Positions 15,206 through 17,582 of a stretch of 64,000 nt of DNA are shown here, in pieces (positions within the stretch are counted from its first letter, which is position 1; each line of letters opens with the position of its first letter). Source of the DNA: Escherichia coli (GTDB lineage: Bacteria > Pseudomonadota > Gammaproteobacteria > Enterobacterales > Enterobacteriaceae); NCBI RefSeq assembly GCF_003334305.1, contig NZ_QOWS01000010.1. The stretch is one strand, 5' to 3'. The position numbers were made by a program, and so were the translations under genes. Below the pieces are notes generated by a model. The model did no database searches, was not told where the DNA came from, and saw only the letters and a program-made list of their open reading frames with translations.

Positions 15206-15219
15206 GTCTGAGATCAGAG

Positions 15220-15293
15220 ATACGGCTAATAACCGTATGTCTTGACAGAGTGAGCAGATGAACATAAATTAATCATACGGTTGATAGCCGTAT
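15220..15293 (+). promoter_or_regulatory. Putative promoter/operator of the toxin-antitoxin operon: two ATACGG-N7-CCGTAT palindromes flanking a -35 TTGACA / -10 TAAATT element
   Basis: Palindrome 1 ATACGGCTAATAACCGTAT (~15220-15238), -35 TTGACA (~15242-15247), 16-17 bp spacer, -10 ATAAAT/TAAATT (~15264-15270), palindrome 2 ATACGGTTGATAGCCGTAT (~15275-15293); ~55 bp centre-to-centre. Confidence 0.5.
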
Positions 15294-15346
15294 TATGTAT
15301 GAGATCGACTCCCTACGATTTCATTCAGTTAATCAAAGAGGTCATA

Positions 15347-15658
15347 ATGCCTGGAAAAACAGCCACTCTACCCGATGTCGATAAAACGCTGAAAAATGCG
15401 CGGGTCGAACTCAAAACTAGTCCCGACGCCAAAAACAAACTTCGTGAAGCTGCGCAAGCCGTTGGGGTAGATTTAAGCGCTTTTATTTTGAGCGCTGCTA
15501 TGGAACGCGCCGAAAGTGTGCTTGATAACCAACGTCGCCGTGAGCTTTCGAATCAAAGCTGGGAACTGATGAACCAACTCATCGCTGAACCTGCTCAACC
15601 GACGCTCGCCCTCAAGGCGTTAATGAAAAGGAAAAACAGCGATGGTCGACAAGCATGA
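15347..15658 (+). CDS. Putative type II antitoxin, DUF1778/RHH-like (TacA/AtaR/KacA-type partner of GNAT toxins)
   Basis: 103-aa ORF MPGKTATLPDVDKTLKNARVELKTSPDAKNKLREAAQAVGVDLSAFILSAAMERAESVLDNQRRRELSNQSWELMNQL...; good SD AAAGAGG 8 nt upstream; 3' end overlaps the GNAT gene by 17 nt; ORF-track frame extends further upstream (125 aa) but lacks an SD. Confidence 0.8.
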   Translation: MPGKTATLPDVDKTLKNARVELKTSPDAKNKLREAAQAVGVDLSAFILSAAMERAESVLDNQRRRELSNQSWELMNQLIAEPAQPTLALKALMKRKNSDGRQA

Positions 15659-16184
15659 AGAGATTACTCTGCCCATAGTCCTCTCCTGTAATTATCAGTC
15701 TGATATTACTTATCCTGGGCAAAAACAGTTTGATTGCGGTAACCCTGTTATCGATAAATTTGTACGCGCATCGCTAAAGAAAAGTGTGCGTAATAGCGAC
15801 TGTGCGGCTAAAGCACTTATTGACAGACAAAGTGGTGAACTGATCGGCATCTGTACTTTTACGGCATATTCGCTGGAAAAACAACGCGTTTCTGGCGTCC
15901 TTCAGGGTTCACAACCTTCAGAAATTGGTGTTGTCAGATTAGTCATGTTGGGGGTAGCACGGAAGTATCAAAAGCGGGGCTTTGGTCAGGACCTACTATG
16001 TGATTTTTTTGAACATGTAAAAATAATTCACCAGGCATTACCAATTAAAGGGGTTTATCTTGATGCTGACCCTGCCGCCATTAATTTTTATGCTCGTCTC
16101 GGCTTTGTTCAGCTTTCAGCGACACCAAATGCTTTTGGTGCTGTACCTATGTTTTTGGCGATTCAGCATATTCTCGCGGCTTAG
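15642..16184 (+). CDS. Putative GNAT-family N-acetyltransferase toxin (TacT/AtaT/ItaT/KacT-like)
   Basis: 180-aa ORF with N-terminal FDCG motif (KQFDCGNPVIDKF), acetyl-CoA motif QKRGFGQ (Q-x-x-G-x-G) and C-terminal NFYARLGF typical of GNAT toxins; SD AAGGA ~10 nt upstream. Confidence 0.85.
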   Translation: MVDKHEEITLPIVLSCNYQSDITYPGQKQFDCGNPVIDKFVRASLKKSVRNSDCAAKALIDRQSGELIGICTFTAYSLEKQRVSGVLQGSQPSEIGVVRLVMLGVARKYQKRGFGQDLLCDFFEHVKIIHQALPIKGVYLDADPAAINFYARLGFVQLSATPNAFGAVPMFLAIQHILAA

Positions 16185-16239
16185 ATTATTATCGCCACCC
16201 GCCAGGGCAAGTTTTGCCTCAGCCGGGGGCTGAGCAGCG

Positions 16240-17175
16240 TTACCACTTTTGTTCAATTGCCCCCGCTTTCAGCAACTCCACATCCTTGCCGTTAATGGTT
16301 GCCGTTGCGGCAACGATTGTGGTCCTTACAGTTGCACAAGATTTTCGCTCAAATTCCGGTTTATAAAGAATAAGAGACGAATTACTGGTAAATGAACCAA
16401 ATAGGTAATCAGTAAAGCTAATATTCAGCCGGTTTAAACCGAAAGGCGCGAAGCCAACCGTTTGGTTAATCTCCTTACCGGATGGGCGACGAATGCTGAA
16501 TGTCACGCGAAGATTGGCCACTTCGCCTAATTTATTGGTGGTGGCGAAGAGGCTATCCATGCAGGAAAAACCTTTATCTAAAAAATTATCTCGCATCCCA
16601 GAACGGGTAACCGTAATCACGGGTAACGTATCGTCAACCGTTTTTCTGTCAATCATGTCTTTTCGACAAGTAGCCAGAAAGTTTTCTGGGCCACCATAAA
16701 TGTGGACACCTTTATCAAGATATTCCTTCGCTTTCTTACAATCTACCTCAACATACTGACCATTGGCGTACATAATGCCCAACCTGGACCATGCTAAATT
16801 CACACCGTGCTGCGCGGCCTGATTAAATAGTGCATACGCTTTGGCATAATCCACCCGCACCTGCTCACCGTCGTAGTAGATACCCCCCAGCGCTAACGGA
16901 GCTTCTCTGTCACCTTGTTTAGCCGCTAACTCGAACCATTTAATCGCTTCCTGAACATCAGGTTTGGTATCATAACGAGGCTGATAATATTCCCAGCCTA
17001 ACAGGCTCTGCGCGTCGATATCTCCCGATTCAGCCATTTTATGCAGTGTATTTATAACATCGGGAGCAGGTTTACCACCGTATATGCTGTCATACAATTC
17101 ATGCGCTTTCTCGCTGGCCACCACGCTTGGTGAAACTATCAGCATTACAGAAAATAATATTCTTTTAGTTAACAT
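16240..17175 (-). CDS. Secreted Sel1-like repeat (SLR/TPR-like) protein with uncharacterised ~150-aa C-terminal domain
   Basis: Start taken at MLTKRILFSVMLIVSPSVVASEKA (signal-peptide-like) within the 331-aa ORF-track frame; Sel1 motifs (AIKWFELAAKQGDREAPLALGGIYYDGEQVRVDYAKAYALFNQAAQHGVNLAWSRLGIMYANGQ); C-terminal ~150 aa has no motif I recognise. Confidence 0.8.
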   Translation of the reverse strand: MLTKRILFSVMLIVSPSVVASEKAHELYDSIYGGKPAPDVINTLHKMAESGDIDAQSLLGWEYYQPRYDTKPDVQEAIKWFELAAKQGDREAPLALGGIYYDGEQVRVDYAKAYALFNQAAQHGVNLAWSRLGIMYANGQYVEVDCKKAKEYLDKGVHIYGGPENFLATCRKDMIDRKTVDDTLPVITVTRSGMRDNFLDKGFSCMDSLFATTNKLGEVANLRVTFSIRRPSGKEINQTVGFAPFGLNRLNISFTDYLFGSFTSNSSLILYKPEFERKSCATVRTTIVAATATINGKDVELLKAGAIEQKW

Positions 17176-17235
17176 GTATACCTTTATGTCCTCACTGTCA
17201 TATATTTCCATAATAATTAACCACCAAACATCCAT

Positions 17236-17576
17236 TTAATGAATAAATACAGTGCCATAAAGGTCCAAGTAATAAGCACACATTTAGCCTGAAACATTAT
17301 CATCCATGTCACCAAATCGTTTATTTAGTGAGATAAAACTAGCATATTCGTAAGATAAAAAATGCACATAGCAATCAAGAAATGATATTATTACTTTTTT
17401 GATGTAAAACTATTTAGTTTTAAAATTCATTTTTTCAACATATAGAGCATTCATTTTATGAATGCAAAAAAACATACCTGACACACAAATTACTCTCCTC
17501 TGTAATATTTTCTCATTAACACTCTGTTTACCCAACATGCGCTCCGCACTACACTATGTGGGCATTTTTTTAAGGG
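17236..17576. other. Very AT-rich intergenic tract (right flank of the islet; likely promoter region for the Sel1 gene and yajR)
   Basis: ~340 bp dominated by A/T runs, with perfect palindrome GCATTCAT-TTT-ATGAATGC at ~17447-17465. Confidence 0.5.
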
Positions 17577-17582
17577 GTGGTA

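Follow-up and report, generated by a model that had tools for sequence, protein, structure and literature searches.

ItaRT and related systems

The closest described relative of the locus considered here is the toxin–antitoxin (TA) pair ItaRT, which was described in 2018 and 2020 from Escherichia coli HS and BL21(DE3) (PMC6125619, PMC7367177); the genes came from strain HS, and the BL21(DE3) copy is virtually identical (Wilcox et al., 2018, PMC6125619). The substrates of the toxin, ItaT, are Ile-tRNA and also Val- and Met-tRNA, and its residues G115 and Y150 are required for toxicity (PMC6125619, PMC7367177). A 172-bp fragment upstream of itaRT drives transcription, and the ItaR–ItaT complex represses this transcription (Wilcox et al., PMC6125619). 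TacAT of Salmonella, KacAT of Klebsiella and AtaRT of E. coli O157:H7 likewise have an RHH/DUF1778 antitoxin encoded 5' of a GNAT toxin that acetylates aminoacyl-tRNAs. Their tRNA specificity is not uniform, as AtaT acts on initiator Met-tRNA, whereas ItaT acts on the Ile, Val and Met species. IrmA, which is relevant to the third gene of the locus, is an E. coli interleukin receptor mimic encoded in the agn43 operon; it forms a domain-swapped dimer and binds IL-2, IL-4 and IL-10 (PMC4807369).

The DNA analysed here is a 64,000-nucleotide stretch from E. coli (hereafter, the window), in which three additional genes lie between the 3' end of cyoE (15162) and the start of yajR (17583): an itaRT pair and a convergent gene encoding a Sel1-repeat protein. 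The segment is very probably an old variable chromosomal locus with three functionally separate parts, and not a fresh mobile islet.

The itaRT operon

The first gene, itaR (15347–15658, plus strand), encodes a 103-aa RHH/DUF1778 antitoxin of the TacA family, and the second, itaT (15642–16184, plus strand), a 180-aa GNAT toxin. With itaR upstream, itaT downstream on the same strand and a 17-nt overlap between them, the two form an antitoxin-first bicistronic operon. The ItaR sequence matches KacA (3.6e-11) and AtaR (8.8e-9) in the PDB (phmmer), and the Pfam families TacA1 and NikA-like are recorded on an ItaR orthologue. ItaT agrees with PDB entry 7BYY at 179 of 180 residues (E = 4e-118), the sole mismatch being the engineered inactivating G115D substitution of 7BYY; the acetyl-CoA motif QKRGFG, which includes G115, and the catalytic Y150 are both present in the window. 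Matches to the other toxins in the PDB were weak (KacT, 2.7e-6; AtaT, about 1e-5; TacT, 6e-4; bit scores of 23–31). At the nucleotide level, itaR is 100% identical to ECD_RS01980 of BL21(DE3), and itaT is 99.8% identical to the copy in that strain.

The two-gene module is ItaR–ItaT, which has already been characterized genetically, biochemically and structurally, so the "undescribed module" of the initial annotation is, for the TA pair, a published system (PMC6125619, PMC7367177, PDB 7BYY). The locus is the same as in HS and BL21(DE3), the toxin is wild-type ItaT, the layout, 17-nt overlap and promoter fragment are shared, and there is no protein difference from published ItaRT. Toxicity of ItaT and its neutralization by ItaR have been demonstrated for the identical protein (PMC6125619, PMC7367177). 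Published work on the identical proteins shows that ItaT uses acetyl-CoA to acetylate the α-amino group of charged tRNAs (Ile-, Val- and Met-tRNA), thereby blocking translation, that ItaR binds the toxin and neutralizes it, and that the ItaR–ItaT complex represses the promoter of its own operon.

The best sigma-70 promoter match in the region (TTGACA-17-TAAATT, 15242–15270, plus strand, 10/12 positions) falls within the published 172-bp upstream fragment, and its −35 and −10 elements are conserved at orthologous loci. A repeat search revealed two copies of the palindrome ATACGG-N7-CCGTAT that are candidate ItaR/ItaRT operators: O1 (15220–15238), just 5' of the −35 element, and O2 (15275–15293), just 3' of the −10 element. 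The position of O1 is kept in cryptic Escherichia L008, in L006 and in Pseudocitrobacter, with divergence of the adjacent bases, and a palindrome similar to O1 occurs upstream of plasmid-borne itaRT homologues. O2 is conserved in L008 and reads ATACGG-N7-CCGTAC in L006 and Pseudocitrobacter. This bracketing of the −35 and −10 elements suggests that repression may be exerted through O1 and O2. The itaRT papers contain no word starting with "operator" or "palindrom" and no occurrence of cyoE, yajR or Sel1 (PMC6125619, PMC7367177); the palindromes and the genomic context described here are therefore additions to them.

The Sel1-repeat gene

The third gene (16240–17175, minus strand) is convergent with itaT and encodes a 311-aa protein with about 3–4 tandem Sel1 repeats (Pfam PF08238) of the α-solenoid type, followed by a C-terminal β-sandwich. 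Inspection of the N-terminus revealed a putative Sec signal (MLTKRILFSVMLIVSPSVVA|SEK) that homologues retain, and these also share four invariant cysteines. Bacterial Sel1-like repeat proteins are usually exported by way of an N-terminal signal peptide. An alternative upstream start, giving 331 aa, was rejected: E. albertii has a stop codon within the extension, and the signal peptide would be buried in the longer protein. The hairpins between itaT and the Sel1 gene were no better than those of shuffled sequences (z of −1.1 and −1.2), and no terminator is therefore claimed there.

Compared with c5321 (CFT073, 4BWR), LpnE (Legionella) and HcpC (Helicobacter), the window protein has only 3–4 repeats, and it carries a C-terminal β-sandwich that all three lack. 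This domain has the predicted FnIII-like β-sandwich fold of IrmA. Sequence identity to IrmA (5EK5) is 18%, and the IrmA-like domain is fused to Sel1 repeats here, whereas IrmA stands alone. The Pfam IrmA family (PF18673) did not match the window protein even at E ≤ 10, and its matches among 14 C-terminal domains of the family were weak (2 of 14 at E ≤ 1e-3 and 5 of 14 at E ≤ 0.1). A profile built from the C-terminal domain family retrieved no IrmA chain from the PDB by sequence, so the link to IrmA rests on fold and on the weak Pfam matches. Out of 1.84 billion cluster representatives, a profile of this domain matched no more than 36, and the family combining Sel1 repeats with an IrmA-like domain is small, its named members coming only from Enterobacterales. 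Fold and sequence together suggest that the protein most likely binds other proteins, in the periplasm or as a secreted factor. The Sel1 gene would be a separate part of the locus, convergent with itaRT and encoding a product predicted to be exported.

Boundaries and composition

Comparison with K-12 MG1655 by blastn confirmed that there is extra DNA between cyoE and yajR: positions 15206–17496 (2291 bp) are missing from K-12, which has 17 unrelated bp in their place. On the left, identity to K-12 ends at 15202–15205, within the intrinsic terminator of the cyo operon (15178–15205, plus strand), which was found by a terminator scan and consists of a 10-bp stem (15178–15201) and a T-run; the sequence in common with K-12 ends with this terminator, which marks the left junction. 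The window shares a junction motif, TTTTTTATTG(T/C)CTG, with Pseudocitrobacter and L006; the motif reads TTTTTTATTGCCT in cryptic Escherichia L008, and the terminator stems of these loci differ. On the right, about 80 bp after 17496, 5' of yajR, diverge strongly from K-12. The limits first proposed, 15206–17582, are accordingly exact at the left end and reasonable at the right, where the K-12 gap ends at 17496 and the megablast match returns only from 17573. The segment is also, as had been suggested, the sole non-core content, in that no other stretch between 3100 and 64000 is without a megablast match in K-12.

The segment is accessory DNA of atypical composition. Its GC content, which the initial annotation had judged by eye to be low, is 42.7%, as against 50.8% and 52.9% in the 10-kb flanks. 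The 2377-bp window with the lowest GC content in the 64 kb begins at 15151, the minimum elsewhere being 46%. GC3 is 0.35–0.44 in the islet genes and 0.60–0.67 in cyoE and yajR, and GC falls to 30.7% in the AT-rich tail (17176–17582). Only three ORFs of the segment belong to a known family, and the assignments already made for them (DUF1778 antitoxin, GNAT toxin and convergent Sel1 protein) are correct; searches of the three proteins against NCBIfam gave sub-threshold matches only. The reported lack of mobility genes, tRNA and direct repeats was borne out: no integrase, recombinase or transposase was found among the ORFs of the segment or in the RefSeq annotation of the same locus in BL21, ARAGORN detected no tRNA or tmRNA in the 64-kb window, and the search for direct or inverted repeats at the ends gave only short, chance-like matches, none of which stands out. 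A search of 14900–17900 against Rfam at a permissive threshold gave no matches.

Distribution within E. coli

The segment had been described as strain-specific, which does not agree with its presence in 1371 of 5426 complete E. coli genomes (25%), among them BL21(DE3), strain B, O111:H8 and SMS-3-5. K-12, O157:H7 and Nissle lack it. Of these copies, 1220 have at least 99% identity to that of the window and 131 have 95–99%. Divergence reaches about 3.5% (SMS-3-5), approximately that of flanking genes between E. coli lineages. The full and empty intergenic regions each show about 3.4% divergence within their class, the empty alleles of K-12 and Nissle differing by 3.4%. An IS3 element is found as a secondary insertion only, in a few strains.

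The acquisition mechanism had been considered unclear. Similarity of the flanks is independent of whether the haplotype is full or empty: the cyoE region of the window has no SNPs relative to BL21 between 13500 and 15200, and its yajR is K-12-like (3 SNPs), whereas the yajR of BL21 has 14 differences per 500 bp. This SNP mosaic points to homologous recombination in cyoE and yajR. A full 2.4-kb haplotype and an empty 148-bp haplotype, both old in E. coli, would have passed from lineage to lineage through homologous recombination in the core genes on either side, and exchange of this kind would explain the absence of an integrase, a tRNA and direct repeats.

The same site in other species

Related content occupies the cyoE–yajR site in other species and genera. 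E. albertii has the Sel1 gene and the AT-rich region but no itaRT, cryptic Escherichia has the order yajR-Sel1 (499 aa)-Sel1 (310 aa)-itaT-itaR-cyoE, and Pseudocitrobacter has cyoE-itaR-itaT-Sel1-Sel1, with an ItaT that is 93% identical. In Salmonella, the site contains a pair of Sel1 genes and no itaRT. The Sel1 proteins at all of these sites share the C-terminal domain. The Salmonella enterica pair (L092) lies at the same site, divergent from yajR, and has the same architecture of Sel1 repeats and C-terminal domain, with 35–36% amino-acid identity to the window protein; it consists of two long paralogues (489 and 503 aa) without itaRT, whereas the window has one short protein (311 aa) with itaRT. 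STM0438, a "virulence gene" in one survey, was considered as the Salmonella Sel1 gene and set aside, the correspondence between tag and gene being unconfirmed. A scan of contigs was dominated by generic Sel1 proteins, the informative ones among the matches listed coming from Pseudocitrobacter and Pectobacterium.

The Sel1 gene of the window would be the remnant of a two-gene Sel1 locus of the kind found in Salmonella, Pseudocitrobacter and cryptic Escherichia, the long paralogue having been lost from E. coli and E. albertii; the long paralogue of cryptic Escherichia was found in none of the complete RefSeq E. coli genomes. An order of events in which the Sel1 pair is ancestral and itaRT was inserted later may be proposed from the roughly six taxa sampled. 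Relative to L008 and E. albertii, dS is 0.14–0.45 for the islet genes and 0.13–0.31 for the flanks, the Sel1 gene being somewhat above the flanks. A recent insertion is not supported, since E. albertii, cryptic Escherichia, Pseudocitrobacter and Salmonella carry orthologous content between cyoE and yajR, and dS is similar to that of the flanks.

Alternative readings of the locus

A recently acquired islet, placed 3' of the cyo terminator by a site-specific or illegitimate insertion of unknown type, would account for the atypical GC and GC3 and for the absence from K-12, O157:H7 and Nissle. Relatives of itaRT have been found on a Citrobacter freundii phage-plasmid (78.5% amino-acid identity), a Rahnella plasmid (71%) and a Serratia plasmid (63%), so the TA pair is mobile in principle. 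However, even the nearest of these plasmid copies is just 78.5% identical, there is no integrase, IS, tRNA or border repeat, and the same junction and gene order recur in other species and genera. With dS comparable to that of the flanks and divergence within E. coli of up to 3.5%, equal to the level between lineages, recent acquisition is improbable. The low GC and GC3 are nevertheless unexpected in long-resident DNA, and could reflect repeated re-import of the cassette; cross-species recombination of the whole cyoE–yajR block could likewise mimic vertical inheritance.

It is very unlikely that the three genes work together as a single functional unit, such as a new anti-phage defence or stress system, in which the TA pair would sense or execute with the Sel1 protein as its partner. 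The genes co-occur almost constantly in E. coli (1368 of the 1371 matches span at least 80% of the islet), and the linkage of itaRT to Sel1 extends to cryptic Escherichia and Pseudocitrobacter. Nevertheless, Salmonella and E. albertii have Sel1 at the site without itaRT, itaRT homologues on plasmids lack a Sel1 neighbour, the convergent genes would be driven from separate promoters, and the putative signal peptide of the Sel1 protein contrasts with the cytoplasmic action of ItaT. PADLOC gave no meaningful match (none for ItaR or ItaT, and one spurious 40-residue match for the Sel1 protein), and cloned ItaRT works alone as a self-contained TA pair (Wilcox et al., PMC6125619).

That the empty site of K-12 is a simple, recent, one-step deletion of an ancestral islet is equally hard to credit, although the islet content is ancestral at the genus level and K-12 retains the cyo terminator and the yajR promoter hexamers: the haplotypes share only 58% identity over the 95 bp 5' of yajR, K-12 being closer there to Citrobacter (66–67%) than to any islet-type allele, and the empty alleles of K-12 and Nissle are as far apart as full alleles among lineages, which indicates that the empty allele is old and distinct rather than a fresh deletion scar.

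The AT-rich region and the yajR promoter

Under the preferred reading of an old variable locus, the remaining part of the segment is the non-coding AT-rich region (17176–17496, ~31% GC), which probably contains the promoter and leader of the Sel1 gene and is divergent from yajR. It is 83–88% identical to its E. albertii counterpart, and in L008 the same sequence lies 5' of the extra 499-aa Sel1 gene, which falls exactly between positions corresponding to 17175 and 17199 of the window. It would be a conserved regulatory region common to the Sel1 gene and the divergent yajR.

Downstream of it lies an islet-linked allele of the yajR promoter (17497–17582, plus strand) with a putative −35 element, TTTACC (17527–17532), and a putative −10 element, TACACT (17550–17555). 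These hexamers are retained in all the taxa compared, which is consistent with a promoter role at yajR. The sequence around them differs greatly from K-12 (58% identity over the 95 bp 5' of yajR), whereas the first 600 nt of yajR are 99.8–100% identical. For the same 95 bp, identity to the window is 93% in L008, 84% in E. albertii, 74% in L006 and 64% in Salmonella. As the diverged promoter alleles track the full or empty state, regulation of yajR may differ between the haplotypes too.

Possible roles of the polymorphism

Unlike K-12, B and BL21 strains possess both a functional aminoacyl-tRNA-acetylating toxin and an uncharacterized Sel1/IrmA-like protein of predicted export. A speculative and rather doubtful reading is that the locus is an ancient presence/absence polymorphism maintained by selection and predating the E. 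coli lineages, in which the Sel1–IrmA-like protein would serve as a host or envelope factor (for example by binding host proteins, as IrmA binds cytokines) and itaRT, acting as a local addiction module, would make loss of the locus slower; such a polymorphism has possibly been kept across genera. The locus would also illustrate cleanly how an old presence/absence polymorphism is exchanged through homologous recombination in its flanks, a process that would explain islets without mobility genes. The family combining Sel1 repeats with an IrmA-like domain, which occupies a conserved site in both Salmonella and Escherichia, is a reasonable, if non-urgent, target for study. The 325-aa replacement gene of E. 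albertii was also found in one E. coli genome.

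Gene content of the cyoE–yajR interval

In the window, a strong intrinsic terminator (stem at 15178–15201) lies downstream of cyoE, which ends at position 15162; yajR starts at 17583. E. coli K-12 MG1655 lacks the DNA found here at 15206–17496 (2291 bp) and has 17 bp there instead (blastn), with high identity resuming only from 17573. The three extra genes described in the initial annotation, for a DUF1778 antitoxin, a GNAT toxin and a convergent Sel1-repeat protein, are indeed present: itaR (103 aa; 15347–15658, plus strand), itaT (180 aa; 15642–16184, plus strand, overlapping itaR by 17 nt) and a Sel1-repeat gene (16240–17175, minus strand), the last separated from yajR by about 400 bp of AT-rich DNA. 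The segment has a GC content of 42.7%, versus 50.8% and 52.9% for the 10-kb flanks, and contains the lowest-GC 2.4-kb stretch of the entire 64 kb; GC3 is 0.35–0.44 in its genes versus 0.60–0.67 in cyoE and yajR. No integrase or transposase was found within it, no tRNA was found, and repeats at its borders did not exceed chance, again as first reported. The claim that this is the only non-core stretch in 64 kb holds for positions 3100–64000, in which it is the sole part without a K-12 match. The observation is thus confirmed, but its interpretation, as a strain-specific insertion of an undescribed module, is only partly supported.

The same site in other species

The evidence indicates that the islet is an old resident of the cyoE–yajR site rather than a recent insertion, as orthologous content is present at the same position in E. 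albertii, a cryptic Escherichia (CP057686), Pseudocitrobacter and Salmonella, with a synonymous divergence like that of the flanks. In E. albertii, an orthologue of the Sel1 gene is accompanied by the AT-rich region and by islet-type sequence upstream of yajR, and the alignment is unbroken across window positions 16256–19000, at about 90% nucleotide identity; itaRT is replaced by a different gene, of 325 aa. In the cryptic Escherichia, the gene order is yajR–Sel1 (499 aa)–Sel1 (310 aa)–itaT–itaR–cyoE; the long Sel1 gene is placed exactly between window positions 17175 and 17199, and the sequence upstream of it is the homologue of the window's AT-rich region. A Pseudocitrobacter MAG has the order cyoE–itaR–itaT–Sel1 (308 aa)–Sel1 (494 aa), with a 93% identical ItaT and the same junction motif past the cyo terminator. 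In Salmonella enterica, the site contains a pair of Sel1 genes from the same family and no itaRT; in Citrobacter freundii-type genomes, it contains two DUF1493 genes, and in C. farmeri it is empty. Relative to the cryptic Escherichia and E. albertii, dS is 0.14–0.45 for itaR, itaT and the Sel1 gene, comparable to the 0.13–0.31 for cyoE and yajR; relative to Pseudocitrobacter, itaR (0.61) is on a par with cyoE (0.69).

In the simplest history, an ancestral pair of Sel1 genes, divergent from yajR, would have come first, itaRT would have been gained beside the cyo terminator long ago, and the long Sel1 paralogue would then have been lost in the form found in E. coli and E. albertii, with many lineages lacking the entire locus.

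Some lineages carry what look like decayed copies. A metagenomic relative retains a remnant of itaT of about 224 nt (locus L006, 5927–6233). For the Sel1 gene, strain CUVET19-1704 has a frameshift, GB089 and PM4-5 an IS3 interruption, and Shigella sonnei and S. flexneri only fragments. The 325-aa protein of E. albertii (locus L004, 6048–7025), encoded between cyoE and the Sel1 gene, has an apparent signal peptide and matches no Pfam or NCBIfam family; its gene occurs in one complete E. coli genome (R32_14_1F), at 97.5% identity.

Two old alleles in E. coli

The segment absent from K-12 is present in 1371 of 5426 complete E. coli genomes (1220 at ≥99% identity, 131 at 95–99% and 20 below). It is carried by BL21(DE3), strain B, O111:H8 and SMS-3-5, among others, and is missing from K-12, O157:H7 and Nissle; as accessory DNA, it is thus distributed by lineage and is not specific to one strain.

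Over the 95 bp upstream of yajR (17488–17582), identity between the window and K-12 falls to 58%, versus 99.8–100% for the adjoining 600 nt of yajR coding sequence. Identity to the islet-type upstream allele is 93% in the cryptic Escherichia, 84% in E. albertii, 74% in the metagenomic relative and 64% in Salmonella; the K-12 allele has its nearest match in Citrobacter (66–67%). A putative yajR promoter (−35 TTTACC, −10 TACACT) is present in all the alleles compared. Within each class, full alleles (window versus SMS-3-5) and empty alleles (K-12 versus Nissle) differ by about 3.4%. This difference and the diverged upstream alleles rule out the empty state being a fresh deletion scar.

Resemblance in the flanking genes cyoE and yajR does not track haplotype class, with yajR 99.5% identical between SMS-3-5 and Nissle and 99.8% identical between the window and K-12. 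The window combines a cyoE identical to that of BL21 with a K-12-like yajR, from which BL21 yajR has diverged by about 2% (14 differences per 500 bp in one comparison), which puts a recombination breakpoint at the islet's right-hand edge. The full and empty states are old alleles, shuffled as the flanking core genes undergo homologous recombination. The mechanism of acquisition, initially considered unclear, can thus be read from the flanks, and exchange by this route explains the lack of integrase, tRNA and direct repeats. This old two-state polymorphism, with its two deeply diverged yajR promoter alleles, is a new but minor finding.

The itaRT toxin–antitoxin pair

The two plus-strand genes encode the published ItaRT system, described from E. 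coli HS by Wilcox et al. (PMC6125619), and the module is, thus, already known. The 180-aa protein differs from ItaT in PDB 7BYY at one residue only (179 of 180 identical; E 4e-118). The difference is G115, replaced in the crystal by D, an inactivating mutation introduced for crystallization (PMC7367177); the ItaT of the window is therefore wild type and retains both G115 and the catalytic Y150. The 103-aa protein, which matches KacA (3.6e-11) and AtaR (8.8e-9), belongs to the RHH/DUF1778 antitoxins. BL21(DE3) has a pair virtually identical to that of HS (ECD_00377–00378; PMC6125619), and the window is 100% (itaR) and 99.8% (itaT) identical to the BL21(DE3) copy at the nucleotide level. ItaT is toxic, acetylates Ile-tRNA(Ile) and is neutralized by ItaR, with which it forms a tight complex; a 172-bp upstream promoter fragment is repressed by this complex, but not by ItaR alone (PMC6125619). 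Zhang et al. solved the structure and added Val- and Met-tRNA as substrates (PMC7367177).

Two copies of the palindrome ATACGG-N7-CCGTAT, at 15220–15238 and 15275–15293, flank the region's best sigma-70 match (TTGACA-17-TAAATT, 15242–15270). Both copies hold their position in the cryptic Escherichia, the metagenomic relative and Pseudocitrobacter, with variable adjacent bases, and a similar palindrome lies upstream of plasmid-borne itaRT homologues. From this conservation, we infer that they are candidate ItaR operators, a new but minor finding.

The Sel1-repeat gene

The Sel1 protein has an N-terminus resembling a Sec signal peptide (by inspection) and three Sel1 repeats (residues 55–156, Pfam); residues ~165–311 have no Pfam match. 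Four cysteines are invariant among 22 homologues, and an AlphaFold2 model built from their alignment (mean pLDDT 86, pTM 0.83) consists of an alpha-solenoid followed by a beta-sandwich. Sequence comparison hints faintly at a link between the C-terminal domain and IrmA, the E. coli interleukin receptor mimic protein: the Pfam IrmA model matches two of 14 relatives at E≤1e-3 and five at E≤0.1, but not the protein of the window, and a search of the PDB with the family profile did not retrieve IrmA. Searching 1.84 billion clustered proteins with the domain profile gives only 36 representatives, and in nearly all full-length matches the domain sits C-terminally in proteins of 300–600 aa. The named members among the matches listed are all Enterobacterales (Escherichia, Salmonella, Pseudocitrobacter, Pectobacterium, Affinibrenneria and Morganella). 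The gene evolves several times faster than its neighbours, with a dN/dS of 0.19–0.24 indicating constraint. The best-supported inference is that of a putative exported protein-binding factor; the Sel1 plus IrmA-like architecture, in what is by its named members a small Enterobacterales family, is new but minor. Two UniProt entries (A0A0H3MM38 and A0A376ZPS8), one of them for the E. coli IAI39 Sel1 protein, are labelled "zinc-dependent hydrolase", probably an annotation error, as neither sequence nor model supports it.

The three genes probably do not form one system. They are jointly present or absent in E. coli, but this is because all lie in one non-homologous block. Salmonella and E. albertii have Sel1 genes but no itaRT at the site, and itaRT homologues occur without Sel1 on the C. 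freundii phage-plasmid p2-S1-CHI-03-B (among baseplate and tail genes; ItaT 78.5% identical) and on Serratia marcescens plasmid P1 (beside repB; ItaT 63% identical). In addition, itaRT and the Sel1 gene converge and have promoters of their own, the Sel1 product has a predicted signal peptide and the other product is cytoplasmic, and PADLOC reported nothing relevant among the islet proteins. The plasmid location of the homologues fits a plasmid-maintenance role for this ItaRT subfamily.

The AT-rich region and intergenic differences between strains

The non-coding AT-rich region (17199–17480), which has no Rfam match, may serve as a regulator site, a leader or a target of H-NS. It contains blocks conserved between E. 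coli, E. albertii and the cryptic Escherichia, such as CCATTTAATGAATAAATAC..TGCCATAA and GTAATAAG.A.ACATTTA, and a palindrome, GCATTCATTTTATGAATGC, at 17447–17465, with a related copy at 17229–17244. The ATG at 17235, upstream on the minus strand, is conserved without its reading frame. Upstream of yajR (~17497), BL21(DE3) has a 9-bp tandem duplication (TCTGTAATA) relative to the window. Elsewhere, the dxs–yajO intergenic region (~25972) is about 124 bp longer in K-12, and mak–araJ (~52943) has about 104 bp more of a repeated unit there; both are probably differences in the copy number of REP-type repeats.
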